From the NCBI GenBank assembly GCA_040219255.1, contig JAVJSW010000060.1, positions 6,249 through 70,248 of the forward strand: a stretch of DNA of 64,000 nucleotides. Reading direction: 5' to 3'. The position numbers and the translations under genes are program-made. The DNA comes from Sumerlaeia bacterium. Lineage in GTDB: Bacteria; Sumerlaeota; Sumerlaeia; SLMS01; JAHLLQ01. Numbering within the stretch: the first letter of the stretch is position 1; every line of letters starts with the position of its first letter. Below, in pieces: positions 9,390 through 47,807 of this stretch. Below the pieces are notes generated by a model, which saw only the letters and a list, made by a program, of their open reading frames with translations, was not told the DNA's origin and ran no database searches.

Positions 9390-9475
9390 CCGTGTCCCTT
9401 TGATCCGCAAAGCGTTGCGCTCTGGGTCCGGTTGCAAGGGCCGCGCCCGCCGGCGCCCCGGGTGGGGCTTTCGGT

Positions 9476-10042: not shown

Positions 10043-10310
10043 AGGGAAAGGGTCCTCCGCGTCATGGCCGGCATCGGCAGTCTTCGGATTGCCGGAGCGA
10101 TGGGTGAATTGGAGCCTTTCCGGGGGCCGGGGGACAAATGGAGTTTTGGTTTCCGGTGGCGAAAAATCCCGCCGCGATAAGCCTTGTGGAAACCCAATTC
10201 GGTTCTGTATCAACTGGCAATCCTTTTCAGGCCGGTCTGAGTCGGCTTGAAGGCGCCGGGTTCGTCCTTGGACTTTCCGGCGTCAGACCCGATGCATCGG
10301 AGGCATCCGC

Positions 10311-13300
10311 ATGTCCCTCAAATCCCGGCCCCTGGCGCTTCCCGGCGCCGCGGCCTTTGTCCTGGCTTCGGCTCTGGCACTGCCCGCCTGGGCTTCCAAC
10401 GAAGAAACGGCCGCCATTCCGGACAACCTGAAGGCCGCCATCGGCGCCATCACCTCCTCGGGCGGTTCTGACAAAGGCAACGATTTCGAAAACGCCGTCA
10501 AAGACCTCGAGAAGCGCGAGGGCTTCATCAACCTGTATATCAGCGAGGAGAAGAACCAGCTCCTGGCGGAAATCCCGGGCAACCTGATCGGCAAGGACCT
10601 GCTCCTCAGTTCTTCCATTTCCCGCGGCCCGAACCAAGGGTTCCAGTGGGGCAGCCTCATGATTCGCTTCGAGAAGCTCGAGGACGAACTCATCGTCGTG
10701 GCGCCCGATCCCTTCTACACCGCGAGCGGCACGCTGAAGGACGTGGTGGAACGGACCTATCCAGACCCGGTGGCGACGACTGTGCGGGTCCGGGCGGAGA
10801 AGGGAAAGAACGTCCTCATCGACCTGATGGATCTGTTCGGCAACAAGGCGTCGGCCCTTGCGGGAACGCGCCCCGCCGCCACGATCATGCAGCCGGGCAA
10901 GGCGAAGGCCTTCCCCAACAACGTCGTGGTGGAAATCGTTTTCCGCAATTCCCGCGGCGCCACGGGCATCACCTACAGCCTGGATCAGTTGCCCAACACG
11001 GGCTACAAGCCCCGCCAGGCGGACCAGCGCATCGGCTACTTCCTGACGGCGCAGAAGGATTTCTCGAAGGACGAGGAACAGCCCGACATCTTCGATCGCT
11101 ACATCAATCGCTGGCATCTGGAGAAAGCGGACCCGAGCCTTAAGCTCTCGCCGCCCAAGGAACCGATCGTCTTCTACCTGGAGGACTCAATCCCGGTACG
11201 TTACCGGCGCTGGGTGCGCCAGGGCGTCGAGGACTGGAACAAGGCCTTCGAGAAGATCGGCATCGTGGATGCCATCGTTGTGCGTCAGCAAACCAGCTCC
11301 AACGAATTCAAGGATCTGGATCCGGAAGACGCGCGCTACAACTTCATCCGCTGGATCACCAGCGAGTCGGCCTTCGCCATGGGTCCGAGCCGCGTCGATC
11401 CCCGCACGGGCCAAATCTACGACGCCGACATCATCTTCGACGAGAGCATGGTGCGGTACTATGTGGACAGCCATGAACTGTTCATCGAGAGCGTGCCGAA
11501 CAGCGCCTCGCTCTCGCCGAGGCTCCGGCACTGGTTGGCGTCCAATCCGTCGGCGCACCCGAATTGGTCGATGGTGCGGCCGGATCTGGCTTTGCGGATT
11601 CAGAACGATGCGGAGATGGCGGCGGCGGGCGTAACGCCGGAAGAACTCTTCGCGCGCGAACTGATAGGGAACCTGGATGGTTTCAAGAACCCGCACTACT
11701 GCTCGCTGGGCGAGCACGTCCGGGGCGAATTGGCGTTGGCCCGCATGGCCGCCATGGGCCGCGACTTCATCGTCTTTGAGCAGATGAAGGACGCGGCGAA
11801 GAAGGAAAAGGAAGCGGAAGAGAAAGCCGAAGCAGCCGCCGAGGACGATGCTTCCAGCAAGACCGTCGAAGTCGCGGAAGAGCTGATCGAGGAATTGGAA
11901 GAAGCCGCGGAAGCCGCGGAGGAAGAAGACGGCGAGGAAACCGCGGACGCCGAAGAGAATGGCTCGAACGGCAAGAAGCCGGAGAAGCGCAACCTGGATG
12001 AGTGGCCCGAGGAATTCATCGGCCCGCTGGTGCGCGAAATCATGGCCCACGAAGTGGGTCACACGCTCGGCCTGCGGCACAACTTCAAGGCCAGCACCTG
12101 GAAGAGCTACGAGGAAATCGTCAACACCGACGATCCGACCACGGCGACCATCGCCTCTGTGATGGACTACAATCCCTATGCGCTGAAGCCCGATGGCTCA
12201 CAGCCCGCGATGTGGATCACGCCGACCATCGGGCCCTACGATTACTGGGCCATCGAGTACGGTTACGCGATCCCCGGTTCGAACGATTATCCGCGCAACG
12301 AGGACAAACTCCTCAAGCAAATCACCGACAAGGTCGCTCAACCCGGTCATGACTACGGCACGGATGAGGATACCTGGGGGCCGGACCCGATGACGGTGCG
12401 GTTCGACCTGGGCAGCGATCCGCTGACCTTCGCCGCGGCCCGCGTGGATCTGGCGGATAAGATCCTCAACAACCTGATCGAGGCGGTCCTTCAGGAGGAC
12501 GATCCCTACAGCAAAGCCCGCGACGCCTTCGATGTGCTGTTCTACCAGCGGTTCAGCGCGGCCTACGCGGCGGCGCGGTTTGTGGGCGGGTACCACATCC
12601 GGCGCGACCAGCGCGGAGACACCGACGCCCGCCAGCCCATCGAAGTGGTGGACGCGGAAACGCAGCGCCGCGCCTTCAACATGCTTCTGGAGAAGGTTTT
12701 CGCCAAGGACGCCATCCAGGTGAAGCCGGAACTGCAGGTCTACCTGGCCGCCGACCGCTGGAGTCACCGCGGTTCCTCTGGCTGGTACCAGCCTTTGACC
12801 TACCCGATTCAGGACCGCATCCTGATGACGCAGAACAATATCCTGTTCATGCTGACCAACCCGGAGCGCGTGCAGTGGATCTACGACTCGGAGTTCACCT
12901 CCGAGGCGGAGGACCTGTTCACGCTGCCGGAAATGATGTCGGGCCTGACGGATTCGATCTGGAGCGAAGTGTTGCAGGCCGAAGGCGAGGGATCGCAGGA
13001 GAAGTACACGACGCGCAAGCCCTTCGTGGACAACCTGCGGCGCAACCTCCAGCGCAGCTACCTGGGCCAGCTGATCAAGATCGCCACCGGGGGCGACGAC
13101 AGCATGTATCCTGCGGTGTCGCGGACGCTGTCGCACGGCGAACTGGCGAAAATTGGCGACGCCATCGGCGGCGTGATGGAAAGCCCGCTGGCTTCTCAGC
13201 TGGACCCCTACACGGCGGCGCACCTGCGCGAGTCCAAGGCGCGGGTCGACGCGGCCCTCGACGCCCAGATCACCGTCGGCGGCAACCGGGGCGGCGGCTC

Positions 13301-13394
13301 GATCATCCTGATGCTGGGCCAGGAGGGGAACAGCGATCCCTCCGCCGGCGCGACCTTCACCGGCGACGCCCCCATGCCCCGCATGCGGCGCTAA
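10311..13394 (+). CDS. Secreted zinc metalloprotease of the DUF5117/DUF4953 family (HEXXH), with an internal acidic low-complexity tract
   Basis: Signal peptide; 'MAHEVGHTLGLRHNF' zincin motif; acidic stretch 'EEKAEAAAEDD...EEEDGEETADAEENG' at about 11800-11990. Confidence 0.8.
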   Translation: MSLKSRPLALPGAAAFVLASALALPAWASNEETAAIPDNLKAAIGAITSSGGSDKGNDFENAVKDLEKREGFINLYISEEKNQLLAEIPGNLIGKDLLLSSSISRGPNQGFQWGSLMIRFEKLEDELIVVAPDPFYTASGTLKDVVERTYPDPVATTVRVRAEKGKNVLIDLMDLFGNKASALAGTRPAATIMQPGKAKAFPNNVVVEIVFRNSRGATGITYSLDQLPNTGYKPRQADQRIGYFLTAQKDFSKDEEQPDIFDRYINRWHLEKADPSLKLSPPKEPIVFYLEDSIPVRYRRWVRQGVEDWNKAFEKIGIVDAIVVRQQTSSNEFKDLDPEDARYNFIRWITSESAFAMGPSRVDPRTGQIYDADIIFDESMVRYYVDSHELFIESVPNSASLSPRLRHWLASNPSAHPNWSMVRPDLALRIQNDAEMAAAGVTPEELFARELIGNLDGFKNPHYCSLGEHVRGELALARMAAMGRDFIVFEQMKDAAKKEKEAEEKAEAAAEDDASSKTVEVAEELIEELEEAAEAAEEEDGEETADAEENGSNGKKPEKRNLDEWPEEFIGPLVREIMAHEVGHTLGLRHNFKASTWKSYEEIVNTDDPTTATIASVMDYNPYALKPDGSQPAMWITPTIGPYDYWAIEYGYAIPGSNDYPRNEDKLLKQITDKVAQPGHDYGTDEDTWGPDPMTVRFDLGSDPLTFAAARVDLADKILNNLIEAVLQEDDPYSKARDAFDVLFYQRFSAAYAAARFVGGYHIRRDQRGDTDARQPIEVVDAETQRRAFNMLLEKVFAKDAIQVKPELQVYLAADRWSHRGSSGWYQPLTYPIQDRILMTQNNILFMLTNPERVQWIYDSEFTSEAEDLFTLPEMMSGLTDSIWSEVLQAEGEGSQEKYTTRKPFVDNLRRNLQRSYLGQLIKIATGGDDSMYPAVSRTLSHGELAKIGDAIGGVMESPLASQLDPYTAAHLRESKARVDAALDAQITVGGNRGGGSIILMLGQEGNSDPSAGATFTGDAPMPRMRR

Positions 13395-13421
13395 GCCCTC
13401 CACCGTCTCCGACAGGACAGT

Positions 13422-13473
13422 CCCCGCCGGCCCCCGCCACTCCGAACCGAGTGGTGGGGGCCGGTTCTTTTTA
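13422..13473 (+). terminator. Rho-independent terminator after the metalloprotease gene
   Basis: Hairpin ccccgccggcccccgccactc...gagtggtgggggccgg followed by ttctttttatt. Confidence 0.6.
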
Positions 13474-14760
13474 TTCCGCCCCCTCCCGGCCACGCATCAT
13501 CCGGATTTTCAGGGGCGAGAGCGTGTCCAGGTGCACGTCGCGTTGCGGGAATGCGATGGTGATGTTGGCTTCCTTGAACAGTTCGTCGATGCGGAATCGG
13601 ATATCGCTCTGGATTTGGCGCTGCTCCATGAAGGATTTCACCCGGGCCCAGAAGAAGCAGGTGAAGCCCAGGGCATTGTCGCCAAAGTCCTCGAACAGAA
13701 CGATCGGCGTGGGAGTTTTGTCGACGCGCGGGTGTTCGTCGATGGCCTGGCGCAAGAGGCGTTCGGCGTCGCGGGTGGGGGAACCGTAGGCGATGCCGAC
13801 CTTGACTTCCGTGCGGACTTGATCGTCGCGGCCGTAGGTCCAGTTGATGAGCTTGTTCTCCACCAACTGCCGGTTCGGCACCAGCATGTCCACATTACCC
13901 GGCAGGCGGATGCGGGTGCGGCGGGCGCCGATTTCTTCGACGCGGCCTTGCTCGCCATCGAACTCGATCAGGTCGTTGGGGCGGATCGGTTTCTCGAACA
14001 GCAGGATCAACCCGCCGATGAAGTTGGCGAGGATTTCCTGGGCGCCGAAGCCCACCGCCAAGGCGACCGCGCCACCGAGGAAGGCGAAAATAGAAAGCGG
14101 AATGCCTGAAAAATCGAGCGCGAAGAACGCGATGATCACCACCAACAGAACCCGCACGAGGCGTTCGAGATAGTCGGACGACGCCCTGTTGAGGCGGAAC
14201 TTCTTGAAAACGCGCTTGCGGGCCCACGCCGACGTCAGCCTGGCCAGCAGCAATCCGATGACGAAAATCAGCAGGGCGATCAGCAGCTTGAACAGCGTGA
14301 TTTTCGAACCGTTCACCACCAGCCCGATGTCGAAGAAAATGTACGCCAGCCAACCGAGGCCGAAGCGTTCGGCGAATTCCTTGACCTCCATCTCGGTTTT
14401 CAAGACCGAGCCTTCCAGAGCCTCGAGGACCGCCGGCCTGGTCGTTCCCAAATCCACCACAAGGGCCGAAGGTGGCAGGGTGGCGGCCGGCGATGCCGTG
14501 GGCGTGGGCGACGGCGGGGCTGTGGCTGTTGGGGTCGTGGGAGCGCTGTCGGTGGCGGCGGGGGCGCCGGCTGGGGCGGCGACGGTCGGGTCCGGCTCAG
14601 CCCGGGGCGCGGGGCTGTCCGGTGGAGGCGCCGCGGCCGTCTCGCTCGATCCGCTGGAGCGGACGGTCTGTCCGGCTTCGTAGAGGGCGCTGTCGGCGAA
14701 GGCCGCGGCGGTCAGCAGGAGGTAAAGGGTGGCGGGAAAAACAAAACGTAGGAGGGGCAT
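13471..14760 (-). CDS. Mechanosensitive ion channel, MscS family, with signal peptide and Pro/Thr-rich N-terminal region
   Basis: MscS core 'GAQEILANFIGGLILLFEKPIRPNDLIEFDGEQGRVEEIGARRTRIR'; ATG at 14760. Confidence 0.8.
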   Translation of the reverse strand: MPLLRFVFPATLYLLLTAAAFADSALYEAGQTVRSSGSSETAAAPPPDSPAPRAEPDPTVAAPAGAPAATDSAPTTPTATAPPSPTPTASPAATLPPSALVVDLGTTRPAVLEALEGSVLKTEMEVKEFAERFGLGWLAYIFFDIGLVVNGSKITLFKLLIALLIFVIGLLLARLTSAWARKRVFKKFRLNRASSDYLERLVRVLLVVIIAFFALDFSGIPLSIFAFLGGAVALAVGFGAQEILANFIGGLILLFEKPIRPNDLIEFDGEQGRVEEIGARRTRIRLPGNVDMLVPNRQLVENKLINWTYGRDDQVRTEVKVGIAYGSPTRDAERLLRQAIDEHPRVDKTPTPIVLFEDFGDNALGFTCFFWARVKSFMEQRQIQSDIRFRIDELFKEANITIAFPQRDVHLDTLSPLKIRMMRGREGAE

Positions 14761-14915: not shown

Positions 14916-17444
14916 ATGGATTTCTCCACGCGCGACGCCCTCGGGCTCGACGCCGTTCTCGAACAACTCGCCGATCACGCCGCCTCCACCCTCGGGAGCG
15001 ACTGGGTGCTCGCGCGCGAACCCGCTTCGGATTCGGACGCCGCGCGGGAGCAACTCGCCCTGACGGCCGAGGTCCTCGATCTTATCGATCGGGGCCAGAA
15101 ACCGCCGCTGGGCGGCCTGAGCGACGTCGGCGAGAGCCTGGCCATCGCGGCCCAGGCGCACTCCTCCCTGCCGCCGGAGCGCTGGATGCCTCTCGCCCGG
15201 CACTTGCAGGCGGTCGAGGCGCTCTCGCAATTCGGCGCCAACCGGGCCGAATCGGCGCCGCTGTTTTCCAAGATTTGCGAGCGCCTGAGTACCGAACCAG
15301 ATCTCTCGAGCGCCATCGAACGCACCTTCGATCACGACGGCCGCATCCGCGATAACGCCTCGCCGGGGCTCAGCCGGGCACGCTCGGACCTGCGCCGCGC
15401 GGAAAGCCGCGTCTTCTCGGAAATCAACGGCGCCCTCGGCCGCCTGCGCGGCGACAGCATTCTACAGGACGATTACTCGACGGTGCGCAACGGCCGCCAC
15501 GTGGTTCCTGTGAAGGCCAATTTTCGTGGCCGCGTCAACGGCATCGTCCACGGCTCCTCGTCCAGCGGCGAAACGCTTTTCATCGAGCCGGCCAACGTGG
15601 TCGAGGCCGCCAACGACGTGGAAATCGCCCGCGAGCGCGAAGCCGAGGAAGTCCGCAAAATCCTGGAAGCGCTCACCGCCCAACTCCGGCCCTTCGCCCC
15701 CGTGGCCAAAGCCGATTTGCCGGCGCTGGCTCTCATCGATGGCACGACAGCCCTGGCCCGCGCGGCGGCCGAGCACGGTTGGCGCATCCCGACCCTGACC
15801 GCCGACGGCAGACCGCTGGCGCTGCTCTCGGCCCATCACCCTCTGCTCCACCTGAGCCAGCGAGATAAGAGCGTCCCCATCACGGTGGAACTCTCGCCCG
15901 ACGACTATTGCGTCATCCTGAGCGGCCCCAACGCCGGCGGCAAGACGACGGCCATGCGGACCCTGGCGTTGAGCGCGGCGCTGGCCCAGTGTGGTTCGGC
16001 GATCCCCGCGGCGATGGAATCGGAACTGCCGGTCTTCCGCGGTTTCTACGCCGACATCGGCGATCAGCAAGACCTCGGCGAAGGCGTCTCCACCTTCAGC
16101 GGCCACATCCGCCGCATGCGCGAAATCCTGGAGGAAGCGGACGATCAATCGCTGGTACTGCTCGATGAACTCGGCACCGGTACGGACCCGACGGAAGGCG
16201 GCGCGCTGGCGCAGGCGATCCTGGAAGAATTGATGGCCCGCGCCCGCCTGACCATCGCCACGAGCCATCTGCAGCCCATCAAGCAGTGGGCCGCCGACAC
16301 GCCTGGCGCCCGCAACGCCAGCTTCACCCTGGACCCGCAGACGCACCGGCCCACGTTCCGCCTGCGGCTCGACCTGCCGGGGGCCAGCGAGGCGTTCTTC
16401 ATCGCCGAGAACGAAGGCTTGGACGCGGTGCTGCTCAAGCGGGCGCGGTCCCTGGTCGGCGAGCAGCAGGTCCGCATGAGCGAGTTGATCGCCCAGGTTC
16501 AGCAAATGGAGCAGGACTTGGCCCGCGAGCGCCGCGACGCGGCCGAACGCGCCGAACGGCTCCGCACGCAGCTCGAAATGGCCGAACAGCGCGCCAACGA
16601 TCTGATCGAAGAGCGCAAGCGCGTGCGGCGCATGGCGCTGCAAGAGCGCGACTCCGCCGCCCGCGAAGTGCGCGAGCAGTTCGAGCGCTTGATCGCCGAG
16701 CTGCCCAGCGAGGAAGCCCTCGAGCAGCGCAAGAAGCTGCTCTCGGAAGGCCGCCGCACCATCGCCGGCGAGCAGGAGCGCGTCCGCGGCGAGCTGCGCG
16801 CCATCGAGCAAGGCGAAGGCGACCCGGTGGAGGAGCTGGCGGAGGGCCAGAAAGTCTTCGTGCGGGCCTTTGGGCGCTGGGGCGTTGTCGTCGATGTGGC
16901 GCACGACGGCAGCAAGGCCCGGGTCGACGTCGGCGGCATCAGCGCCTTCGTCCCCGCCGAGGGATTGCTCGACGCCGAGCCGAAGAAAGTCCTGCCCTTC
17001 GAGCCGGACCCGGAACCGCAGGCCGCCGCCGCCCTGAGCAAAACAAAGAAGAAGCCGAAAAAGAGCAAGAAGCTCAAAGCCGCCCTGGAAAACGCGGAAA
17101 CGCTGCCCGATCCCGAGCCGGTGCGCCGCCCCGTTTCCACCCTCTCGCAGCGCTTTCCCACGAAAGCCACCCAGCGAAAGAAAACCGGTTTCCGCCGCGA
17201 ACCGGTTCCCATGTACCTGGATCTGCACGGCTTCCGCGCCATCGAAGCCATCGAAGCGATCGACCGCTACCTCGACCGCGCGCTGCTTTGCGACTACCCC
17301 TACGTCCGCATCATCCACGGCGTCGGCGAAGGCCTCCTCTACAAGACCGTCCGCGAATTCCTCAACGGCTACCCCTCGGTCAAGAGCTGGCGCCCGGGAA
17401 CGCCGGAAGAAGGCGGGGGCGGGGTGACGGTGGTGGAGTTTTAG
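14916..17444 (+). CDS. mutS2: Endonuclease MutS2 (MutS domain III/V ATPase plus C-terminal Smr domain)
   Basis: Walker A 'GPNAGGKTTAMRTLAL', 'LLDELGTGTDPTEG', and C-terminal Smr 'LDLHGFRAIEAIEAIDRYLD'; ATG at 14916. Confidence 0.85.
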   Translation: MDFSTRDALGLDAVLEQLADHAASTLGSDWVLAREPASDSDAAREQLALTAEVLDLIDRGQKPPLGGLSDVGESLAIAAQAHSSLPPERWMPLARHLQAVEALSQFGANRAESAPLFSKICERLSTEPDLSSAIERTFDHDGRIRDNASPGLSRARSDLRRAESRVFSEINGALGRLRGDSILQDDYSTVRNGRHVVPVKANFRGRVNGIVHGSSSSGETLFIEPANVVEAANDVEIAREREAEEVRKILEALTAQLRPFAPVAKADLPALALIDGTTALARAAAEHGWRIPTLTADGRPLALLSAHHPLLHLSQRDKSVPITVELSPDDYCVILSGPNAGGKTTAMRTLALSAALAQCGSAIPAAMESELPVFRGFYADIGDQQDLGEGVSTFSGHIRRMREILEEADDQSLVLLDELGTGTDPTEGGALAQAILEELMARARLTIATSHLQPIKQWAADTPGARNASFTLDPQTHRPTFRLRLDLPGASEAFFIAENEGLDAVLLKRARSLVGEQQVRMSELIAQVQQMEQDLARERRDAAERAERLRTQLEMAEQRANDLIEERKRVRRMALQERDSAAREVREQFERLIAELPSEEALEQRKKLLSEGRRTIAGEQERVRGELRAIEQGEGDPVEELAEGQKVFVRAFGRWGVVVDVAHDGSKARVDVGGISAFVPAEGLLDAEPKKVLPFEPDPEPQAAAALSKTKKKPKKSKKLKAALENAETLPDPEPVRRPVSTLSQRFPTKATQRKKTGFRREPVPMYLDLHGFRAIEAIEAIDRYLDRALLCDYPYVRIIHGVGEGLLYKTVREFLNGYPSVKSWRPGTPEEGGGGVTVVEF

Positions 17445-17590
17445 GCAGATGGTTGAGTGTGGCTTTTTGGTCACAAAATCTAGCGATTTTTGGCGTCATA
17501 ATGCGTTGTTTTCCATTGTCTCGCAAATCGATGTTAAATTTACTCCGTCCAGCGTTTTCAATGCCCTAACCTTTTCACCCGGAGTTCATC

Positions 17591-18079
17591 ATGAAGTTCC
17601 AGAACATTCTCTTGGCCATGGGTTTCCTGGCAGCTACTTCCATCCCTAATATGACCACCGCTGAGTGCGATACCTGCGGCGGCAAGTGCGAAAAGTCTGT
17701 GTCGGCCAGAGATTACAAGGCTTGCACCAATTGGCTGGGAGGTGGTGGTCAGGTCTACATGACCCGTCACGCGAGCTATCGGTGCGACCGAAACAAGCAG
17801 ATTGAGGGCGGATGCAGCGGCACCACCCCAAGTGGTCCAGCCTATACGATTTTTGGCTACGCCCACAATATCAACGAAAACGAATGCGTCGTGCGCTTCG
17901 AACTGAACGGCACGGTCTCGACGATCATTTCCGATTCAGCCTCGCCCTCATTGCCCGAAGGTTCCGTGGTTCTTTCGGTGACCTGCTATGACCGTGATCA
18001 ATGCATCGTGATCAGTTATGAAGAGCCAACTGAAAGCGGCACTGCGAACGAATGCGCCTACCCGTCCTGCAGCGCCTAG
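17591..18079 (+). CDS. Small secreted cysteine-rich protein (12 Cys), unknown function; low-GC gene
   Basis: Signal peptide 'MKFQNILLAMGFLAATS'; GGAG RBS at 17581; about 54% GC versus about 66% in flanking DNA. Confidence 0.55.
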   Translation: MKFQNILLAMGFLAATSIPNMTTAECDTCGGKCEKSVSARDYKACTNWLGGGGQVYMTRHASYRCDRNKQIEGGCSGTTPSGPAYTIFGYAHNINENECVVRFELNGTVSTIISDSASPSLPEGSVVLSVTCYDRDQCIVISYEEPTESGTANECAYPSCSA

Positions 18080-18174
18080 CCGCCTGCAAGCTTCGGCAAA
18101 TAAACAATGCTTCCATCTCAAACCCCTTGGCTCTCCTATGCCAAGGGGATCTTATCATCTTTAAGGACCGCTTC

Positions 18175-19533
18175 ATGTCATTCAGATACTGGGTCGTCTT
18201 ATTCATCTTTTTATGTCCCCTGATCGCATTTTGTCAAGAGCCTGACATTCGTGATTTTCCCCCTTTGGAAGCCGCAATCGCATGGCCAATCATCGAGCAG
18301 GGGACGTTCGAAGGCGTCGTGGAATCTTCCGGACCTCCTCCGATGACGTCACGCGAGGTGGAAGCAAGTCTAATGGATGTCGAAACCGACTTTCTTGCGA
18401 CTTTAGCGGAGAGTGGTGAGGAGCTGTCGGCGGATTACCGGGAGATACTGGACGAATTCCTTGAGGAGCAAAGAGGTATATTGGAAAAGCTGCTTCTGCC
18501 TACGAATTCAAAAAAGAATTTTACGGTGTCGCTTTCCGGTCACCAGATGCGGCTTGAGTCGAGGATTTACGAGGATGATAGTTCCGTTTCCGAAGAGACG
18601 ATGACGGTGATTGGTCCAGAGGGGAAAAAGATCCTCACATCGAATATCCGATATTCCCGCCCAAGTGCCTACATATTTTTGGACGATGCCAAGAACGCTC
18701 CGGAAGACGCTATTTACGGCAACATCCTGGGTACGATCGGGACGGAGTTAGCCAAGGCGTCCACCCTGAATTTGTCGAGCAAGGATCTGGAAGGCGACAA
18801 GGTCTATTGGTTCGAGGCCACGGACATCAAGACAGACTTTTTCGACATTTACAGGGATGGCGCGGTTTCCTTCACGCGTATTGGCGTACGCTCTCAACAC
18901 GGCAACCGCCTCTCCGTCTATTTCAGCCAAGTTGGCGAAACCTTTCGACTCATCAATCGATATGACGACTTCCGAGAGGTTCCTGGATGGGGGTGGTATC
19001 CGCATGAAATCACGCTCATAACTCAGAATGGCGTCTTTGACAAGGAGGTTCTCCAGCGTATCCGCTCCGGGGCTCTGGCCCCCAACACCGACGAAGCGAT
19101 CGCCGCCTTCGCCCCTCAAGTAGAGAATGTGAAGACGATTACTTTGAGCAAAGTGGACATCGAAACACCGGTGGAAAAAGACGTTTTCGATTTCGAAATT
19201 CCAGTCGGCACCGTAGTCAAAGTCTACACCGGAGATGAGTCCAGCACCTACGTTCAGGGGGACTTTTCCGCGAGAGATGTTGTTACCGGCAGAAAGGTTG
19301 ACATGGCGGCGGGTCTGGAATTGGCCGAGGGAACTTCCCAGACTAAGGAGGAGATTGCCGAAACGCCTACACGTGAAATTGTTTCCGATACGCCCGCCAA
19401 GGTGGAACAGAAGGTAGAACCGCATGTCGTCGAACCAGCGAAGTCCAAGCGAAATGGAATGATCTTCGGCCTTCTTGCCGTTTCCTTCGTTATTGGCTTG
19501 GGACTTGTATTCAAGGTCTTTCGTAAGAAGTAA
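18175..19533 (+). CDS. Secreted protein with a C-terminal TM anchor, unknown function (possible LolA/RseB-like fold); low-GC gene
   Basis: ATG at 18175 with N-terminal signal peptide 'MSFRYWVVLFIFLCPLIAFC'; C-terminal 'GMIFGLLAVSFVIGLGLVFKVFRKK'; about 48% GC. Confidence 0.55.
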   Translation: MSFRYWVVLFIFLCPLIAFCQEPDIRDFPPLEAAIAWPIIEQGTFEGVVESSGPPPMTSREVEASLMDVETDFLATLAESGEELSADYREILDEFLEEQRGILEKLLLPTNSKKNFTVSLSGHQMRLESRIYEDDSSVSEETMTVIGPEGKKILTSNIRYSRPSAYIFLDDAKNAPEDAIYGNILGTIGTELAKASTLNLSSKDLEGDKVYWFEATDIKTDFFDIYRDGAVSFTRIGVRSQHGNRLSVYFSQVGETFRLINRYDDFREVPGWGWYPHEITLITQNGVFDKEVLQRIRSGALAPNTDEAIAAFAPQVENVKTITLSKVDIETPVEKDVFDFEIPVGTVVKVYTGDESSTYVQGDFSARDVVTGRKVDMAAGLELAEGTSQTKEEIAETPTREIVSDTPAKVEQKVEPHVVEPAKSKRNGMIFGLLAVSFVIGLGLVFKVFRKK

Positions 19534-19679
19534 TTTCCCTATCTCCACAGCGAATCTCAGTCTCCACAACGATCCAAATCTGCGCGGCCTTTCCCACGGC
19601 CCCCACCTCCCACTGCCTTTTGCAACGCATCGAAAACGTTGACACCGAAATGTGGTGCAATTAGGAATGCGTTTGGATT

Positions 19680-31007: not shown

Positions 31008-31079
31008 GTTGGCGCGGCCCGAGGGCTTCGCAATCTTCTTGATTCGAACCAGCTTTGGGGCTCATAGTCGTCCAACCGA

Positions 31080-31164
31080 GCGAGCGTGGCGGAATTGGCA
31101 GACGCACCAGGTTTGCGTCCTGGCGGGGAAACCCGTGGGAGTTCGAGTCTCCCCGCTCGCACCA
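31080..31164 (+). tRNA. Class II tRNA (Leu-type body, 13-nt variable arm, A73, encoded CCA) whose anticodon loop reads UUUGCGU, giving anticodon UGC (Ala) as read
   Basis: Manual fold: acceptor GCGAGCG/CGCTCGC; D-arm GGCGGAATTGGCAGACGC (near-identical to bacterial tRNA-Leu); anticodon stem CCAGG/CCTGG; T-arm GGGAG-TTCGAGT-CTCCC. Confidence 0.7.
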
Positions 31165-40383: not shown

Positions 40384-41139
40384 CTAGTTGTAAATAAACA
40401 GTCCTGCTTGACATCTCGGATTTTGTGGGAAATCCTTCAGCCATGCTCCCCTTGCGGTAGAACCGCAGGGCTGACGTCCGCCTCTTCGGAGGCGGCGTCT
40501 TTTTTTTAGCGCCACTTTGCCGGCTTTGAAATCGAGACACCAGGAACCAGGAGCGACCTGGATAATATCGGGCATCTGCGACGCCTTCAGTGTGGATTTC
40601 CAGATATCTCTCTTAGAGTCAGCAACCTGCTCGAGGTCGAAAGATTTCCTCTTCGGTGGAAAAGCGACTCGAATCTCTTGTTCGATTTTTCGGCGCTTGA
40701 TGAAACGAATTGGAGGAACCAAATCGCTATCGGCGGAGATCAAGAGTGTCACATCGCACTCTTCGTCGTATGCATCGGTCAGCATTTGCACTGCGATGTT
40801 AACATCCGTCATTTTCTCTTCCGCCCGAACAAAGGGGTAAGAACAGCGAAAGCACTTGCTCTTCTTGTGAAGAAAGTTGCCGTAAACCACAGTACAATCC
40901 CGCAAGGTCTCCACAGCCTCCAAGTAGGCGTTTTGCCTTCGCTCCTTTTGCGGATCAGCGGCAGAGGCGGAAACTCGCGATGTAAAATAATATGTGTGTG
41001 ACAGAGCTTCGTCGGATTTGACGAAGGCGGACGCCAACTTCACAAAATCCAACCAATAATACCTGCGAAATGAAGCACTCTTCATTCCGTAGTACAGGTT
41101 GAATCCATCGATGTATGCAATAACCCTTTTCTGTTCCAT
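40384..41139 (-). CDS. NYN-domain (LabA/DUF88-like) predicted ribonuclease; low-GC gene overlapping the nrdJ stop (TGATG)
   Basis: 'VIAYIDGFNLYY' NYN N-terminus and 'LISADSDL' acidic motif; about 50% GC; ATG at 41137-41139 shares its A with the nrdJ TGA. Confidence 0.6.
   Translation of the reverse strand: MEQKRVIAYIDGFNLYYGMKSASFRRYYWLDFVKLASAFVKSDEALSHTYYFTSRVSASAADPQKERRQNAYLEAVETLRDCTVVYGNFLHKKSKCFRCSYPFVRAEEKMTDVNIAVQMLTDAYDEECDVTLLISADSDLVPPIRFIKRRKIEQEIRVAFPPKRKSFDLEQVADSKRDIWKSTLKASQMPDIIQVAPGSWCLDFKAGKVALKKRRRLRRGGRQPCGSTARGAWLKDFPQNPRCQAGLFIYN
40473..40508 (+). terminator. Orphan plus-strand intrinsic terminator, antisense to the 3' part of the NYN ORF
   Basis: Hairpin gacgtccgcctcttcggaggcggcgtc followed by T9; a TTGACA hexamer lies at 40408-40413. 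Confidence 0.55.
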
Positions 41140-44100
41140 CAACTACACCCCGTCGTCCCCCCGCACGTTTCGCATTTCAGGCAGGTGCCGTTGCGCACGA
41201 GGGTGAAGCTGAAGCAGGACGGGCAGGGGTCGCCTTCGTAGCCTTTCAGGCGGGCGATGCGGATTTGTTCGTCGCGGGTCATGGAGGGCTCCTGGGTGGC
41301 GGCCGTCGAGGCGGACGGCGCGGCGGCGGCCTTGGGGCCTTGGGGCTGGCGGGCGGAGTCGCCGTGGTTCACGGAGGCAGGACTCGGCGAGCCGGGGCGG
41401 AAGTGCTCGCTGACTGGCGGGCGGGCTTCCGAAGGCCGCGGCGTGTCGATGGAGACGACCCGTTCGCTGACGAATTCTTCGCCGTCGAAGTCCGGCGCGG
41501 CCTGGGCCGCCGAGCCCATGGCGTCGTGGCGCAGGTCCTCGGGGCTGACGTGGGCCAGATCGTAGCGGCCCAGGTAGCTGATCGCCAGCTCGCGGAAAAT
41601 GTAGTCGATGATCGACGTCGAGCGTTTGATGTGCGGGTTGCCGCGGACGACGCCGCTGGGCTCGAAGCGCGTGAAGACGAAGCTCTCGACAAACTTCTCC
41701 AGCGGCACGCCGTGCTGCAAACCCATGCTGACGGAAATGGCGAAGCAGTTCATCAGGCTGCGGAAGGCGGCGCCTTCTTTGTGCATATCCACGAAGATTT
41801 CGCCCAGGCTGCCGTCCTCGTATTCGCCGGTGCGCAGGAAGACCTTGTGGCTGCCGATGACGGCGCGCTGGGTATAGCCGCTGCGGCGTTCGGGCAGCCG
41901 GCGCCGGCGGCTGATGTAGCGGTAAATCAGGCGCTCGGCGATCTGCTGGGGCGAGGCGTCGGCGGTGATGGGCGCGAGCGATTCCTCGGCCACTTCCTCC
42001 GCCTCTTCCTCGTCGAGGAAGGCGAGGTCGCTGGCGGAAATGTTGAGCGGCTGGCTGAGCTTCGAGCCGTCGCGATAGAGCGCGACGGCTTTGGTCATCA
42101 GCTTCCACGCCGACATGTAGGCGTTCTTGATGTCGTCCACGCCGACTTCGTTGGGCATGTTGATGGTCTTGCTGATGGCGCCGCTGATAAAGGGCTGGGC
42201 CGCGGCCATCATCTTGATATGGCTGGGATAGGACAGGAAGCGCTTGCCGTACTTGCCGCATTTGTTCGCGCAATCGAACACCGGCAGGTGCTCGTCGCGC
42301 AGCTCGGGTGAGCCTTCGACGGTCATGCGGCCGCAGATGTGATCGTTGGCGGCGGCGATTTCTTCCTTCGTAAAGCCAATGCCCTCAAGGACGCTGAAGC
42401 TCCAGTCGTTGAGCTGCTCGTCGCTCAGGTGCAGGTACTTGCGGCAGTTCTCCTCGCCCAGCGTCCACTTGTTGAACACGAAGGCGATGTCGAACGCCCC
42501 GTGCAATTGGGCCTCGACGGCGTCGAGCATGGCGGGCGTGAAGCCTTTTTCCTCCAGCGTGGCGCGATTGACGAAGGGCGCGCCCTCCAGCGTCAGCGAC
42601 CCCCGCGCGAAAGCGATGATGCGGTCGATCTGGCGGTCGGTATAACCCAGGTGGCGCAGCGCCGCGGGCACGCTCTGGTTGATGATTTTGAAGTACCCGC
42701 CACCGGCCAGCTTCTTGAACTTCACCAGGGCGAAGTCGGGTTCGATGCCGGTGGTGTCGCAATCCATGACGAGGCCGATGGTGTTGTGAGAAATGAACCC
42801 GTTGGCGATGTAGGTGACGTTCTCCGGCACGGAAATGTCGTAGGTCAGTTGCTCGCCGCCGTCTTCGTTTGTGGCGACGGCGTCGTAGAAGAATTGCAGC
42901 GCATGGCCGAGGCGCGGGTCGCCGCTCTCGCGGTAGAGGGTTTCCGCCGCGCGGCGCGTGATGGCGCCGCCGTGGCGCTTGCGCGCGAGGGCGATGGCGT
43001 TCTTCAGCCCGGCGCCGGCGGCCACCGGCGCCAGCTCTTCCAGGACCTCGGGGGCGACGAAAACGTAGTCTTTGCGCGCGGCTTGTTCGTTGTCGGCGGA
43101 GCGCACGGCGGCGGACTTGCGTTGGCCCATGAATCCGATCCAGCGCTGGAACGCCGCGTTGTAGGACAGGTTGCGCAGGCGGCTGACGAACAGATCGCTC
43201 TGGCCCCAGCCGCTCGTGTCCACCTTGGTGGTCGTCGGCAGGCCGAGCGTCAGCAACAGCGTCTTCACCTCTTCGCAGAACTCGCGGTGCGACGTGCTCC
43301 AGCACGGAACGTCCTGGGTCACGGTGCCATCGGCCTCATAGAGCCCGCGCAGGAACGCGCCGTAAACCAACGGATCGTTCGCGCCCAGCACGGCATCGGG
43401 GATGCGGGGCAGGTAGCCTTTGCCGGAATGGCCGGCGCTGGGGGCGGCCTTGGTGAACCCGCAGGCTTCCCACCAGAGCGTCAGCGGCACGCTGTGCAGC
43501 GAAACGCCGGTGTAGCCCTTTTCCTGGGTCACGATGGCGTCCAGGTTGAAGAGGCTCTTGGCGAGGGCGCAGAGGCGCTCGGCGACGTCCCTGTCCCCGG
43601 GCGCGACGCACAGGCGCAGGCCCTTGGCGTGGAGCGACCCATCGCCCATGAAGTACCCGACGAATTCCGCCAGATCGGCCGACATGTGGCGCGGCACGCG
43701 CGTCGTGTAATCGCCGGTCCAGTATTCCTCGCCCAGCGGCGGCAGGTTCACCGCCACCGGATCGCCCGCCAGCGCCCCCATCATCAGAGGCACCACATCG
43801 CCCGGCTGCACGTCGGCGAACCGGCGCCAGACGTGCTCGCCGGTGGCGGCGTCCACGACTTTGATGCGGTGCTTCAGGGTGCCCTGAATCGCGTAACCGG
43901 CGTCGGTGCGCAGGCGCCGCGTGTCCTCGACGCCGTTGACGAAGAACTTCGTGGCGTCGCGCTCGCCTTCGTCGGTCATGACGCTGAAGTCCGCGTCCTG
44001 CCAGCGGTCGCCGTTCACATCGCCGAGACGATTCAGCCGCATCAGGCCGCGATTGGTCGAAACCATCGATCCCGCCACCAGGCATCCTGTCGGCGCGATC

Positions 44101-47100
44101 ACCGTGGTCTGCGCGTTCCGGTATCCGTGCCGCTCGCCCATGTCCAGGGCCTGGTCCCAGGCTTCGCGGGCGGCTTCCAGGAGGGGGGCGGGGCAGTGCT
44201 CCGCCGCGATGCCCATGGGCGTCACGGTCAGGTCCTCGTAATCCGAGGTGTGGGCGTCGTAGGCGGCGCGGCGGTGGTTGCGCATGACGCGAAGCATGGG
44301 CTCGCGGTTGGGGGCGAAGCTGGGGAAGGGGCCCTTCTCGGCGGCGATTTCGGCGCTCGTGGCGTAGGACGTGCCGGTCATCAGCGACGTGATCGCGCCG
44401 CAGACGGCGAGGCCCTGGGGGCTGTCGTAGGGAATGCCGCTGACCATCAGCAGCGTCCCCAGATTCGCGTAGCCCAGGCCCAGCGTGCGGAACTCATAGG
44501 ACAGGCGGGCGATGTGCTCGCTCGGGAATTGGGCCATCATCACGCTGATTTCCAGCGTCAACGTCCACAGCCGGCAGCCGTGGCGGAAGTCCTCGATGGC
44601 GAAGGCGCCGGTTTCCGGATCGCGGAATTTCATCAGGTTGAGCGACGCGAGGTTGCAGGCGGTGTCGTCGAGGAACATGTACTCCGAGCAATTGTGAACC
44701 ACGATGCCGTTGGCGACGAAGTGGCTGGAGACGGGCTCGGTGAGGTCGAAAACGTCCTCGGTGCCGCAGGGGGTGAGGGAGGCGACGCGGTCGTAAGGCT
44801 TGTCTTCGTAGGCTCTCACGGTGGCATTCAGCTCTTTCAGGCGCGCGTTCTTTTCACTGCCTTCCAGGAAGCCGATTTGCTCCTGGAAAACGACACGCGA
44901 GGACCGCGAAATCCGCATCGAATGCATTTGCGCGACCGCGTATTCCTTCAGCCCGCCCTTACCATCGGGCAGAAGTGCGGTCTCCTGACCGAGGGCGCGG
45001 CGGTTCTCGTAGATCTTGGCCTTGATGCCAAAACCGAGCAGAATCATTTGGACTTGGCGCAGCAACTCCAGGCTCGTGCTGTCGAGCGCCACGTACTGGC
45101 TTTTGTCGCCATAATTCGCGACAGTGCCATCGGCCGTGAAGAGGCCCCGCAGAATGGCGGCCTGGCTGATGCTGTCGAGGGCGTAAACCTGATCGGTGAA
45201 AGCCTTGGCGGCGGAGCCTTGATCGAGGTGGGCGTACTTGCGCAATTCCTTCAGCACCGCGCTCACCGACGTTCCGACGCGCAGGCCAGTCTCCGTCTTG
45301 GTGATGAGGGCCTGTCGCACTCCGCGCTGATCGCCGGTGCTCAAGGTTTCCTTTGCCTCGCTCAGCGCGGCGTTCAGGTGGGCCGCGACCCGCTCTTCCG
45401 CCTCGCCGACGGTCAGGAACAGGAACTCCTGGCCTTTCGCGCCGGTGGTGATGCAGCCATCGCCGACCGCGGCACCGAGCACCTCGCCTAGGCAAACCGG
45501 CAGCGCCTCCCTTCCAAACCCGCTCCCCTCCAGAATCACCCGGTCATCCGCCGTCAGCTCGCACGCCGGCACATCGCCGCGGTTCGCTGTCAGGACCTTG
45601 TGGTCGGCGGTCAGGCGGAGGCGATAGCCGCTCGCCGTCTTCAATTCGTAGATCGGCTTGTGGCCCGTGGGGAAAATCTTGTCCACCCAGACCGCGTCGC
45701 CGTTGCCGTTGATGATTTCCGCGCGCTCGCCCACCATGTCGGCGATGCGGCGCAGACCGCTCGTGGTGGCGACGAGGGTGTCGCCGGTGACGCACGGGTT
45801 ACTCGCATTGATCCGCCCGCTCGCCGGGCAGGTGTGCCATTCGTTGATGGTGGTGTCGTACTGCACGCCGGGATCGGCGCAGGACCACGCGGCGTAGGCG
45901 ACTTTGTCCCACAGCTCCCCAGCCGGGACGGTGCGCGCCGTTTTGCCGTTCGTGCGGTTGATCAGCGCCCAGTCCGTCTCCGCTTCCACCGCTTCCAGGA
46001 AGGCGTTCGAGAGGCGGACGCTGTTGTTGCTGTTCTGGCCCGACACCGTGAAGTACGCTTCCGAGTCCCACCCCGTGTCGTACTCCTGGAATTCGAGCTT
46101 GGTGTAGCCCTCGCGGGCCAATTGGATGACGCGCTGGATGTAATTGTCCGGCACTCCAGCGTCGCGGGCGTCGCGCACGGCGCGGCGCAGAACCTTGTTC
46201 TCGCGGGGGTTGTAATTGTCGCCGAAGAGATCCGCGTCGGCGTCGTTGCACGCCGTCATGACGGCGTTCAGGTGGCGGTTGCACAGGCGCGAGCCGCTGA
46301 CCAGGGCGGCGACCTTTTGCTCCTCGCGGACCTTCCAGTCGATGAAGGCTTCGACATCCGGATGGTCGATATCCAGGACCACCATCTTGGCGGCGCGGCG
46401 GGTCGTGCCGCCACTCTTGATGGCCCCGGCGGCGCGGTCGCCGATTTTCAGGAAACTCATCAGCCCACTGGACTTGCCGCCGCCCGAGAGCGGTTCGCCC
46501 TCGCCGCGGATGCGCGAGAAATTCGACCCCGTGCCCGACCCGTACTTGAACACCCGCGCCTCACGCGTCCACAGGTCCATGATGCCGCCGTCGTTGACGA
46601 GGTCGTCATCCACCGATTGGATGAAGCAGTTGTGGACGAGGATGCCGTTGGCAAGGAAATAGTGGTCAGCCGTGGTCAGATCATAGACCTCGTGCTCACC
46701 ATCCAACTCCAATATACCTCTAACCTGTCGAACAGTGAAGTCTTCAGAAATGTCCTCATAGCCGGAGATTTCTTGACCAAAGTATAGATTTCTGGTATTT
46801 CGCAAATACTTTGCAGCGCACAAATAGTGGCCCACTTGCAGCGACTTTGCTTGGCAATCGTGGCGTACGTTATTTTCATAGGTCTGAACCACGTGGTCGT
46901 GAGTGACTCTTACCTTGCCAAAGTTTTCTGTTGCTATAACTTCATGAGAAAATGTTATTTCAACAAGCCGCTTCTTTGTAGGTTGCTTGACTACGTATCT
47001 AATATCTTGGAGCACCCGCTGATCACGAGAAGCTATTTTGTATTTGCCAATTGGCAGTTTGATGCCTCCTTTTTCATCTACATGAGTTGAATGCTCTTGA

Positions 47101-47807
47101 ACGCAATAAGCATAAAACTGATCTATGCGAATTCCACTGTGCTCGGCGGTCGAATCATCTTCGGCTCTCAGTTGCTCCCAACGTGAAGAGTTAGTGGGCT
47201 GAACATATATCTGTACATACGTATCCCCCGCCACACACGCGTGCGGCTGCGGGTGCTCGTAGGCGTTCGCCGACTTCTCCAACTCGCCCGTGAAGGGATT
47301 GACGAAGCTGTGGCCTTGGGCCGGGCCGGTGATGCCGTAGGCCCAGTGGAGCCCCGTGTTGAACCATTGGGGCGAGTTCGGCGCCGCCTTCTGAGCCGCC
47401 AGCATGTGGCACATTTCGTCGTAGTAGGCGCGGGCGTCGGCTTCGGAGGCGAAGTAGCCGCCGCGCCAACCCCAATAGGTCCAGCAGCCCGCGAGGCGAT
47501 GGAAGACGGCGCGGGCGTCGCGCTCGCCGCCCATGGCGGTGCCGGGGGCGGGCACGCGGCGTTGCAGCCATTCGGGCACGCCGTCCTCGGCCACGGGCAC
47601 CGATTCGGCGGGGATGCCGGCTTTGCGGAAATACTTCTGGGCCAGGATGTCGACGGCGATCTGGCTCCAATGATCGGGCACGGCGATGTCCTTGGCCTCG
47701 AACACCACCGAGCCGTCGGGGTTCACGATGCGGCTGGTGCGGGTGGAGAAGGGAATGGCGGCGTAGGGGTCGTTACCGGCGTGGGTGAAGCGGCGGGTGA
47801 TGTTCAT
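41139..47807 (-). CDS. nrdJ: Adenosylcobalamin-dependent ribonucleoside-triphosphate/diphosphate reductase (class II, NrdJ) interrupted by three in-frame inteins; C-terminal Cys-rich tail
   Basis: Extein motifs '[10 protein letters not shown]', 'GGGKSSG', '[11 protein letters not shown]', '[22 protein letters not shown]' and 'CPSCF...CLKCETCGG'; ATG at 47807; 2222 aa, of which about 1217 aa is extein. Confidence 0.9.
42783..44084 (-). mobile_element. Intein 3 (434 aa) with LAGLIDADG homing-endonuclease domain, inserted at APTG|TIGL of NrdJ
   Basis: Starts 'CLVAGSMV', ends 'NGFISHN' followed by the +1 Thr; '[10 protein letters not shown]' and '[11 protein letters not shown]'. Confidence 0.8.
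44691..45794 (-). mobile_element. Intein 2 (368 aa) with LAGLIDADG homing-endonuclease domain, inserted at NPC|SEY of NrdJ
   Basis: Starts 'CVTGDTLVA', ends 'NGIVVHN' followed by the +1 Cys; LAGLIDADG-like '[10 protein letters not shown]' and '[11 protein letters not shown]'. Confidence 0.8.
46629..47237 (-). mobile_element. Intein 1 (203 aa mini-intein) inserted before the Cys of the ACFI motif of NrdJ; AT-rich
   Basis: Starts 'CVAGDTYV', ends 'GILVHN' followed by the +1 Cys; DNA is visibly AT-rich relative to its flanks. Confidence 0.8.

Follow-up and report, generated by a model that had tools for sequence, protein, structure and literature searches.

How did an AT-rich, 609-bp intein come to lie in the high-GC nrdJ gene of a Sumerlaeia bacterium, and how long has it been there? 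Ribonucleotide reductases (RNR) often contain inteins, and atypical base composition is a textbook sign of horizontal acquisition. A sequence-only reading of this DNA had proposed a recent horizontal intein invasion. The gene lies in a 64,000-nucleotide stretch of contig JAVJSW010000060.1, hereafter the window, to which all coordinates refer. It carries three inteins, and the first of them is the subject of this analysis. The relevant features are as follows.

41139..47807, minus strand: nrdJ, B12-dependent class II ribonucleotide reductase; precursor of 2222 aa, spliced product of 1217 aa
46629..47237, minus strand: intein 1, an AT-rich class-1 mini-intein extending from Cys1 to His202-Asn203 (translation, Pfam, NCBIfam, GC, predicted HINT fold)
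47214..47237, minus strand: block A of intein 1 (CVAGDTYV), bearing the Cys1 nucleophile (translation; C1 invariant in a seven-sequence alignment)
46893..46904, minus strand: block B of intein 1, T112-H-D-H115, the TxxH motif (T112 and H115 invariant with six other mini-inteins)
46629..46688, minus strand: blocks F and G of intein 1, the sole part with recognisable relatives; GC3 intermediate
46653..47225, minus strand: low-GC3 tract, residues 5-195 of intein 1 (maximum-likelihood change points)
46626..46628, minus strand: Cys+1 codon TGC in the C-extein, encoding the Cys that is conserved in NrdJ motif PHAC-FIQS
44691..45794, minus strand: intein 2, 368 aa, LAGLIDADG, before the Cys of NPC-SEY; a comparator that is host-like in composition
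42783..44084, minus strand: intein 3, 434 aa, LAGLIDADG, in APTG-TIGL; likewise a host-like comparator in composition
Intein 1 junctions as they stand in the gene (intein-plus): CCGCACGCG / TGTGTGGCGGGG and GTCCACAAC / TGCTTCATCCAA
Intein 1 site joined in silico (intein-minus): CAGCCGCACGCG / TGCTTCATCCAATCG

On translation, intein 1 is an open frame of 203 aa (CVAGDTYV...ANGILVHN) followed by Cys+1. It is inserted in frame between PHA and CFIQS of NrdJ, directly before a conserved Cys. The spliced NrdJ sequence matches the solved NrdJ 7b9p (E=2.9e-255) and is colinear with it at all three intein sites, with a gap-free alignment across the intein 1 site. Because of this colinearity, the intein 1 borders are exact. 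At the base composition of intein 1, the chance of meeting no stop across 203 codons is 5.7e-6. Searches at its borders returned no terminal repeats, target duplication or integrase. Rfam gave no family apart from a distant tRNA, and promoter-like or terminator-like sites are not in excess.

As a class-1 mini-intein, intein 1 is complete: Cys1, TxxH, blocks F and G with their His-Asn end, and Cys+1 are all present. Alignment with six mini-inteins shows C1, T112, H115, H202 and N203 to be invariant. Pfam Intein_splicing (PF14890) matches residues 97-203 (E=6.2e-13; 49.3 bits against a cutoff of 35.8), and the NCBIfam model TIGR01443 (intein_Cterm) also matches intein 1 (E=5.5e-6). A single-sequence AlphaFold model was not usable (pLDDT 34). 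The seven-sequence alignment gave a model with a pTM of 0.60 that is usable for its confident core only, residues 12-82 and 145-165 being of low confidence. Each of the top 42 PDB matches of this model is an intein, HINT or hedgehog domain, and intein 1 is thus predicted to adopt the HINT fold. Judged by its intact catalytic residues and open frame, it is probably able to splice.

The sequence-only reading saw no endonuclease motifs in these 203 aa, and our searches agree. Pfam, NCBIfam and PHROGs gave intein-splicing matches alone; neither Pfam and NCBIfam at E<=1 nor PHROGs at its 0.01 cut-off reported a nuclease family. The same Pfam search detects LAGLIDADG_3 in inteins 2 and 3. The linker that joins block B to block F of intein 1 is only about 25 aa long. 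A PADLOC 'HEase' match on intein 1 covers the C-terminal splicing motif only.

The base composition of intein 1 is far from that of its gene. Its GC is 0.450 (GC1/GC2/GC3 of 0.571/0.330/0.448), compared with 0.649-0.686 in the four nrdJ extein segments, where GC3 is 0.885-0.921. The AT-richness that had been claimed for this element, at the very borders reported here, is therefore real, and the AT-rich string cited as an example is present (77 nt, 47059-47135, plus strand). Inteins 2 and 3 had been called host-like in GC, and they are: GC is 0.639 and 0.677, and GC3 is 0.826 and 0.892, respectively. In 609-bp windows over the whole 64 kb, mean GC is 0.637 with a standard deviation of 0.046. 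The lowest such window starts at 46616 with a GC of 0.442, about 4.3 standard deviations under the mean. The sliding-window check proposed with the original claim thus shows that GC is non-uniform across the gene and that no dip in the window is deeper than the one at intein 1.

Codon usage departs from the host in the same way. A CAI-like index computed against the genes of the window is 0.289 for intein 1 and 0.74-0.82 for the exteins; among 418 reference windows of 203 codons, the lowest value is 0.428. Intein 1 contains six ATA and five AGA codons, neither of which occurs among the 1217 extein codons, and TAT/TAC counts are 10/3 in intein 1 versus 7/32 in the exteins. The diagnostic codons of intein 1 are ATA, AGA, TAT, GAT and TTT. 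Codon usage had been described as foreign on the strength of many AAA, AAT and TAT codons. The description stands, and so does TAT, while the appeal to AAA and AAT is only weakly true (AAA/AAG 4/6; AAT/AAC 3/5). The amino-acid make-up is likewise of AT type, with a G+A+R+P fraction of 0.19 versus 0.29-0.37. Given this low fraction and a GC2 of 0.33, we conclude that AT-rich DNA was the setting in which the intein 1 protein itself evolved. Both in composition and in codon usage, intein 1 falls outside the range of the host, and it does so at synonymous as well as non-synonymous positions.

This anomaly is sharply bounded. Maximum-likelihood change points in GC3 fall at intein 1 residues 5 and 195, with a GC3 of 0.419 inside and 0.894 outside, and the compositional edges lie within 4 to 8 codons of the intein borders. 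Extein codons flanking intein 1 are fully host-like, with no donor-type codons and no co-conversion tract.

Could the AT-rich block be a chimeric join produced by metagenome binning or assembly? The source is a metagenome-assembled genome (MAG), and Logan contigs break within nrdJ. Such an artefact is nonetheless exceedingly improbable: the block is exactly in frame, it has canonical intein residues at both ends, and its excision restores a universally conserved motif. Moreover, the Logan contig L085, an independent assembly, shows 100% identity along 13.6 kb, extending from host genes that fill 13 kb upstream across both intein 1 junctions. The Logan breaks fall in the extein motifs DGGIM/DLW and GLV/MDCD, away from the intein edges. 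We rejected these breaks as a sign of intein-minus alleles because they fall, 51 and 15 nt in, within extein motifs of the highest conservation, and 31-mers there may be common to several species. Their positions also differ from those of a presence/absence bubble.

It had been suggested that a search with the intein alone would reveal the donor lineage; no such lineage emerged. A word-indexed search of 5.8 billion proteins, scans of IMG/VR and the JGI metagenomes, and tblastn against phage and plasmid sequences each returned no full-length homologue of intein 1. Nor did an exhaustive phmmer search of 1.84 billion representatives, a library clustered at 50% identity in which intein homologues could hide behind intein-free representatives. 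It gave six matches, all confined to block F/G apart from that to P0001; this protein has a six-fold repeat that inflates the score, and we regard the match as spurious. Matches of intein 1 to other inteins are limited to its last 20-55 residues (block F/G), the best being to an NrdD intein with 80% identity over 20 aa. A giant-virus match (L081) was also set aside: it is an RNA-polymerase intein that has only 25 C-terminal residues in common with intein 1. Inteins 2 and 3 served as a positive control and gave full-length homologues of 48-61% identity by the same method. Same-site homologues of intein 2 occur in two other bacteria (L030, 50% identity; L042, 48%), and one of intein 3 occurs in L030 (61%).

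The insertion site is empty in the relatives we examined, a point that the sequence-only reading had proposed to check. No insert is present at PHA/C in any of the 80 genomic loci or 120 proteins nearest to this NrdJ; 117 of the latter read P[HQ]AC then (F/V)I(Q/L), and the remaining three are equally uninterrupted. With these sites empty and no full-length homologue found, the AT-rich intein is not a conserved feature of the clade. This absence says little about recency, because the closest NrdJ with sequence at the site, from an uninterrupted Sumerlaeota MAG, is only 77% identical. A much closer relative, ERZ926297, has 97% nucleotide identity, and its contigs for the neighbouring genes (1.3-1.9 kb) end short of the intein 1 site. 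Exact-protein look-ups of nrdJ and its fragments for this relative gave no match. The split from this relative corresponds to only about 2.6% third-position divergence per lineage. Since it is present in public read sets (ERR1739696, PRJEB15706), the timing of the insertion is directly testable. Neighbouring genes in the 64-kb window have no synteny in common with the 80 NrdJ loci. In the literature, we found no map of rir1/NrdJ insertion sites on which to name PHA/C, and no usable earlier report of intein GC anomalies.

Together, these results are best explained by a mini-intein, probably able to splice, that was acquired horizontally, is still unameliorated, and entered by homing followed by endonuclease loss or with help in trans. 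We assign this joint explanation a probability of about 0.7. We infer transfer from composition alone because neither a donor nor a sister intein was found. The intein 1 DNA would derive from a donor genome of roughly 40-47% GC, and its residence in the 64%-GC Sumerlaeia lineage would have been too short for amelioration. A rough two-state amelioration model places this residence at no more than about 0.1 host substitutions per third-position site. Our data thus support the horizontal acquisition originally proposed, with 'recent' bounded only by this crude model. The NYN/HEC-09 gene adjoining nrdJ is missing from the relative of 97% identity and is a local precedent for recent AT-rich gain.

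A mini-intein cannot home unaided. Most likely, intein 1 either arrived by endonuclease-driven homing as a larger intein whose endonuclease was lost later, or had help from an endonuclease acting in trans. It would now be retained because NrdJ is produced only when the intein splices. Splicing would follow the four standard steps, namely an N-S acyl shift at Cys1, transesterification to Cys+1, cyclisation of Asn203 and an S-N shift. In published opinion, mini-inteins are mainly inherited vertically or travel with the host gene (PMC4071816). This opinion counts against the explanation favoured here, and so do the exteins, which are native in composition and lack a co-conversion tract.

Insertion of uniformly AT-rich DNA in a single step would not predict one feature of intein 1: its last 24 codons are intermediate, with a GC3 of 0.75 (18/24) versus 0.41 elsewhere in the intein. 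This raises the prospect of a mosaic, in which an older, ameliorated resident had its interior (roughly residues 5-180) swapped for a foreign AT-rich allele, or had its 3' end converted from intein 2. Crossovers would lie in the conserved end blocks, with a donor intein of the same allele, and no endonuclease acting on an empty site would be required. In a permutation test, the intermediate codons have a P of about 0.003 as a terminal window, but the signal is not significant (P about 0.08) if any window is allowed. A search for ectopic conversion from other inteins gave a single match, in which the last 29 nt of intein 1 share 83% identity with the intein 2 end. However, shared host-preferred codons for F-x-A-N-G-I-x-V-H-N would give similar DNA identity without conversion. 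The N-terminal edge is sharp, spanning only 4 codons, and is not significant, and the resident allele is seen in no relative examined. We consider a mosaic origin unlikely.

Transfer without its own endonuclease is also conceivable, the mini-intein having entered in its present form by recombination in conserved extein motifs or through a trans-acting nuclease. The unameliorated composition would leave little time for a clean endonuclease deletion, which favours such an entry. Yet neither extein flank carries donor-type codons, a 45%-GC donor and a 66%-GC recipient would have to share flanking identity in order to recombine, and there is no candidate trans-acting homing endonuclease nearby, all of which makes this route very unlikely. 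The NYN gene was considered for that role and rejected for want of support: its match is to the defence candidate HEC-09, it is 5.5 kb away from the site, and its GC3 is different. A related and quite unlikely idea is that intein 1 represents an endonuclease-free mini-intein that is itself mobile, through a trans nuclease or motif-confined recombination. It would have gone precisely into a native, GC-rich nrdJ and left the flanking extein free of co-conversion, and it would belong to an unsampled lineage, at a catalytic-Cys site of NrdJ that had not been occupied before. More improbable still is a long-resident intein whose AT-rich, rare codons are kept by selection, for example to slow translation for folding of the intein or NrdJ. 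Intein 1 is intact and in frame, its 11 ATA or AGA codons are never used in the exteins, and no donor was found, all of which speaks for this origin. However, GC2 and amino-acid composition are of AT type too, beyond synonymous sites; inteins 2 and 3 function in the same gene with host-like codons; and no relative examined carries the intein. We know of no precedent for selection-kept AT-rich composition in an intein.

A horizontally acquired intein 1 that is endonuclease-free, unameliorated and sharply bounded bears on how quickly an endonuclease is lost after invasion, and on whether mini-inteins can move without one. As a 203-aa orphan with Cys1 and Cys+1, it is also a possible new scaffold for protein engineering. 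Our main result is confirmatory: intein 1 is a clean and ordinary example save for its lack of an endonuclease and of any recognisable relative.

Intein 1 resembles the class-1 mini-inteins of Mvu and Mja TFIIB, Pho CDC21-1, Pho RadA, the Mtu RecA splicing domain, and Ssp and Npu DnaB in its Cys1, TxxH, F/G His-Asn end, Cys+1 and lack of an endonuclease. Its predicted HINT fold matches theirs (Foldseek E of 1.7e-5 to 1e-3, probability 1.0), and the TFIIB mini-inteins give weak sequence matches. Identity to this group is only 16-27%, host protein and insertion site differ, and intein 1 has some 35-45 extra residues between blocks A and B (about 13-82, a part of low model confidence).

RNR is the second most intein-rich bacterial protein, with 211 inteins (PMC4760082). 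Intein 1 sits in RNR directly at a catalytic motif, as do inteins 2 and 3, the NrdJ-1 split intein and the rir1 alleles. It has no full-length similarity to them, and its match to the NrdJ-1 split intein (8ubs) covers 22 C-terminal residues (E=0.91). Inteins 2 and 3 differ from it in having LAGLIDADG domains, host-like GC and same-site homologues elsewhere. Lawrence and Ochman reportedly provided the amelioration framework for compositionally atypical, horizontally acquired DNA. Like such DNA, intein 1 differs from its host in GC1, GC2, GC3 and codon usage, with sharp edges that coincide with a mobile element. Unlike a genomic island, it is a 609-bp, in-frame splicing element within an essential-type gene.

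The window holds nrdJ, the gene for a B12-dependent class II ribonucleotide reductase (RNR), with three inteins, the first of which differs sharply in composition from the rest of the gene.

Features and composition of nrdJ
41139-47807, minus strand: nrdJ precursor, B12-dependent class II ribonucleotide reductase, 2222 aa
46629-47237, minus strand: intein 1, 203 aa, in frame; GC 0.450, GC3 0.448
44691-45794, minus strand: intein 2, 368 aa, in frame; GC 0.639, GC3 0.826
42783-44084, minus strand: intein 3, 434 aa, in frame; GC 0.677, GC3 0.892
Four extein segments: GC 0.649-0.686, GC3 0.885-0.921

Spliced NrdJ without the three inserts is 1217 aa long, and it aligns to the solved NrdJ 7b9p over 557 residues without a gap (E=2.9e-255), spanning all three junctions (EHPQPHA/CFIQSV, SNP/CSEYMF and APTG/TIGLVMD). 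The intein borders proposed in the sequence-only reading are therefore exact. The cysteine after insert 1 would correspond to one of the redox-active pair (E. coli R1 Cys225) and that after insert 2 to the thiyl-radical cysteine. The product of this nrdJ was not found in the protein collections searched; in the source record, a gene with several inteins may have gone unannotated or been flagged as a pseudogene.

Intein 1 had been described as AT-rich, with foreign codon usage and with inteins 2 and 3 host-like in GC, and recomputation bears out that description. The lowest-GC 609-bp window in the 64 kb (0.442; mean 0.637, sd 0.046) starts at 46616 and is intein 1; the string quoted earlier as an example of AT-richness lies at 47059-47135. 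Maximum likelihood places the GC3 change points at intein residues 5 and 195, a compositional block that matches the intein borders within 4 and 8 codons, and the 30 extein codons on either side are host-like. Codon fit to the genes of the window is 0.289 for intein 1 and 0.74-0.82 for the exteins, with a minimum of 0.428 among 418 reference windows of 203 codons. Intein 1 has six ATA and five AGA codons, neither of which occurs among the 1217 extein codons, and its TAT/TAC ratio is 10/3 versus 7/32 in the exteins. The make-up of an AT-rich genome extends beyond synonymous sites to the intein protein itself, because GC2 (0.330; GC1 is 0.571) and the fraction of G+A+R+P (0.19 versus 0.29-0.37) are also shifted. 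Intein 2 has a GC3 slightly under that of the exteins and a mildly GC-poor endonuclease part (44800-45200, minus strand; 0.585-0.62), and may be an older, mostly ameliorated acquisition. An 87-aa antisense ORF inside intein 1 (46827-47090, plus strand) has no supporting evidence and is most likely a chance ORF.

Two other parts of the window are also GC-poor. A 251-aa NYN-domain gene (40384-41139, minus strand; GC 0.49, GC3 0.55), likewise foreign in composition, has a start codon that overlaps the nrdJ stop codon (TGATG); its matches are the PADLOC defence candidate HEC-09 (E=1.4e-70) and phrog_7929. A relative with 97% identity (assembly ERZ926297, locus L084, 1-400) has about 200 bp of unrelated GC-rich spacer in place of the approximately 826-bp stretch that contains this gene, which therefore reflects a recent gain or loss beside nrdJ. 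The second low-GC island of the window (17400-19600, 609-bp GC down to 0.49) holds a 493-aa ORF (18052-19533, plus strand; GC3 0.60) with an N-terminal hydrophobic segment, a C-terminal membrane anchor and no match in NCBIfam, Pfam, PHROGs or PADLOC.

A chimeric join at intein 1 is very unlikely, because a 17-kb Logan contig from an independent assembly of run SRR26147846 (L085) is 100% identical to window positions 60192-46578, through upstream host genes, the N-extein, the whole of intein 1 and 51 nt of the C-extein. Logan coverage stops at 46578 and resumes at 42768 in a second contig (L086). These breaks, 51 nt past intein 1 and 15 nt past intein 3, could be taken for traces of intein-minus alleles, a reading we reject since both fall inside the most conserved extein motifs (DGGIM/DLW and GLV/MDCD); they are probably de Bruijn branch points at k-mers common to nrdJ genes of other species. 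All 7 mismatches between L086 and the window over 12.4 kb lie within 94 nt (31036-31129), at and just upstream of a tRNA-Ala(TGC) gene (31080-31164), and reflect local differences either between strains or between assemblies.

Intein 1 is a complete mini-intein. Pfam Intein_splicing covers residues 97-203 (E=6.2e-13, over the gathering score), while the C-terminus is recognised by TIGR01443. When intein 1 is aligned with six mini-inteins drawn from its weak matches, C1, T112 and H115 (block B TxxH), V184, Y185, G198, H202 and N203 are invariant; the residue after N203 is Cys+1, the first of the C-extein. An AlphaFold model based on the mini-intein alignment has a confident core (pTM 0.60), and each of its 42 top PDB matches is an intein or HINT domain, including Pho CDC21-1, the Mvu TFIIB mini-intein, RadA, RecA, DnaB and NrdJ-1. 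As in the earlier reading, no endonuclease motif is evident in intein 1: no endonuclease family was detected in the Pfam run that finds LAGLIDADG_3 in intein 2 (E=2.5e-20) and intein 3 (E=5.4e-16), and only about 25 linker residues separate block B from block F. With this composition, 203 codons would stay open by chance with a probability of 5.7e-6, so the frame has been maintained, and intein 1 is predicted to be splicing-competent.

The nearest NrdJ in a one-genome-per-species GTDB set is from a Sumerlaeota MAG at 77% identity. PrfC of the window is 100% identical to a protein from a Sumerlaeia bacterium MAG, and its next-best matches, including one from a Sumerlaeota MAG, are 74-76% identical. 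An insert at site 1 occurs in none of the 80 best NrdJ loci, although a few of them carry inteins at sites 2 and 3 and at an additional site. Nor is site 1 interrupted in any of the 120 best NrdJ proteins from a set of 5.8 billion: in 117, P[HQ]AC runs straight into (F/V)I(Q/L), and 3 are uninterrupted variants. All of these are distant relatives whose synonymous sites have long been saturated; the absences show that intein 1 is sporadic, not that it is young. The nrdJ of an uncultured Alcaligenaceae MAG (L030, ~9430-13500) has at least three inteins, two of them full-length homologues, in matching positions, of inteins 2 (50%) and 3 (61%), and a third after spliced residue 877, a further site identical to that of an insert in locus L066.

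A rough upper bound on the age of the insertion can be inferred from amelioration. Under a two-state model (host equilibrium GC3 0.89, donor GC3 0.10-0.40, present 0.41-0.45), each third-position site would have accumulated no more than about 0.10-0.11 host-type substitutions since arrival. L084, from ENA assembly ERZ926297, is a close relative (97.4% nucleotide identity); in ndk and the adjacent gene, 5.2% of third positions are different from those of the window, which amounts to 2.6% per lineage. Set against the substitution bound, this suggests that arrival could be slightly older or younger than the L084 split; the contigs of ERZ926297 are 1.3-1.9 kb, none tied to the intein 1 site. On the same model, arrival appears to postdate by far the divergence from every NrdJ relative examined.

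The donor was not found in any collection searched. No full-length homologue of intein 1 emerged from a word-indexed search of 5.8 billion proteins or an exhaustive phmmer scan of 1.84 billion representatives, a library clustered at 50% identity, so that homologues could hide behind intein-free representatives. The scan gave six matches at E<=1e-3, of which five are C-terminal stretches of 25-54 residues only; we rejected the sixth (P0001) as a homologue, since this protein consists of a six-fold repeat that inflates its score. Viral and JGI metagenome contigs yielded just one 25-residue C-terminal match, and phages and plasmids none. The best local match (16/20 residues) is to an intein that an AT-rich organism carries in its anaerobic RNR (NrdD). 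As a control, the same tblastn approach recovered from other bacteria full-length homologues of intein 2 (50%, 48%) and intein 3 (61%), in matching positions.

Horizontal invasion by intein 1, as first proposed, is the best explanation of these data, although its timing, donor and mode of entry call for caution. In the published view, inteins that bear an endonuclease spread through cleavage of empty alleles (PMC4760082), and mini-inteins lacking a functional one pass mainly by vertical descent or travel with the host gene (PMC4071816). Extein composition is native as far as either junction, so intein 1 did not arrive with nrdJ. The simplest account would be that a full-length ancestor homed into nrdJ and that its nuclease was then cleanly lost; alternatively, entry may have occurred through a nuclease acting in trans or through recombination confined to the conserved motif.

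A uniform one-step insertion does not fit the 3' end of intein 1, where the last 24 codons (46629-46700, minus strand; blocks F and G) have a GC3 of 0.75 versus 0.41 elsewhere. This shift, and the 83% identity of the last 29 nt to the end of intein 2 (44692-44720), may stem from a recombination joint in block G, from a small conversion templated by intein 2, or simply from chance. The permutation P for the GC3 shift is 0.003 for a terminal window and 0.08 when any window is allowed. We regard a mosaic origin as a minor rival explanation.

Inteins usually lie at catalytic motifs, and a horizontal origin is commonly argued from atypical composition. RNR ranks second among intein-rich bacterial proteins, with 211 inteins (PMC4760082). 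Intein 1 shows no detectable relationship to inteins 2 and 3 or to the NrdJ-1 split intein (22 residues at E=0.91). Compared with minimal inteins, it has about 35-45 extra residues between blocks A and B, in a region that is poorly modelled and without a family match. It is not a homing (bifunctional) intein; in every feature of sequence and fold that defines the class, it is a class-1 mini-intein.
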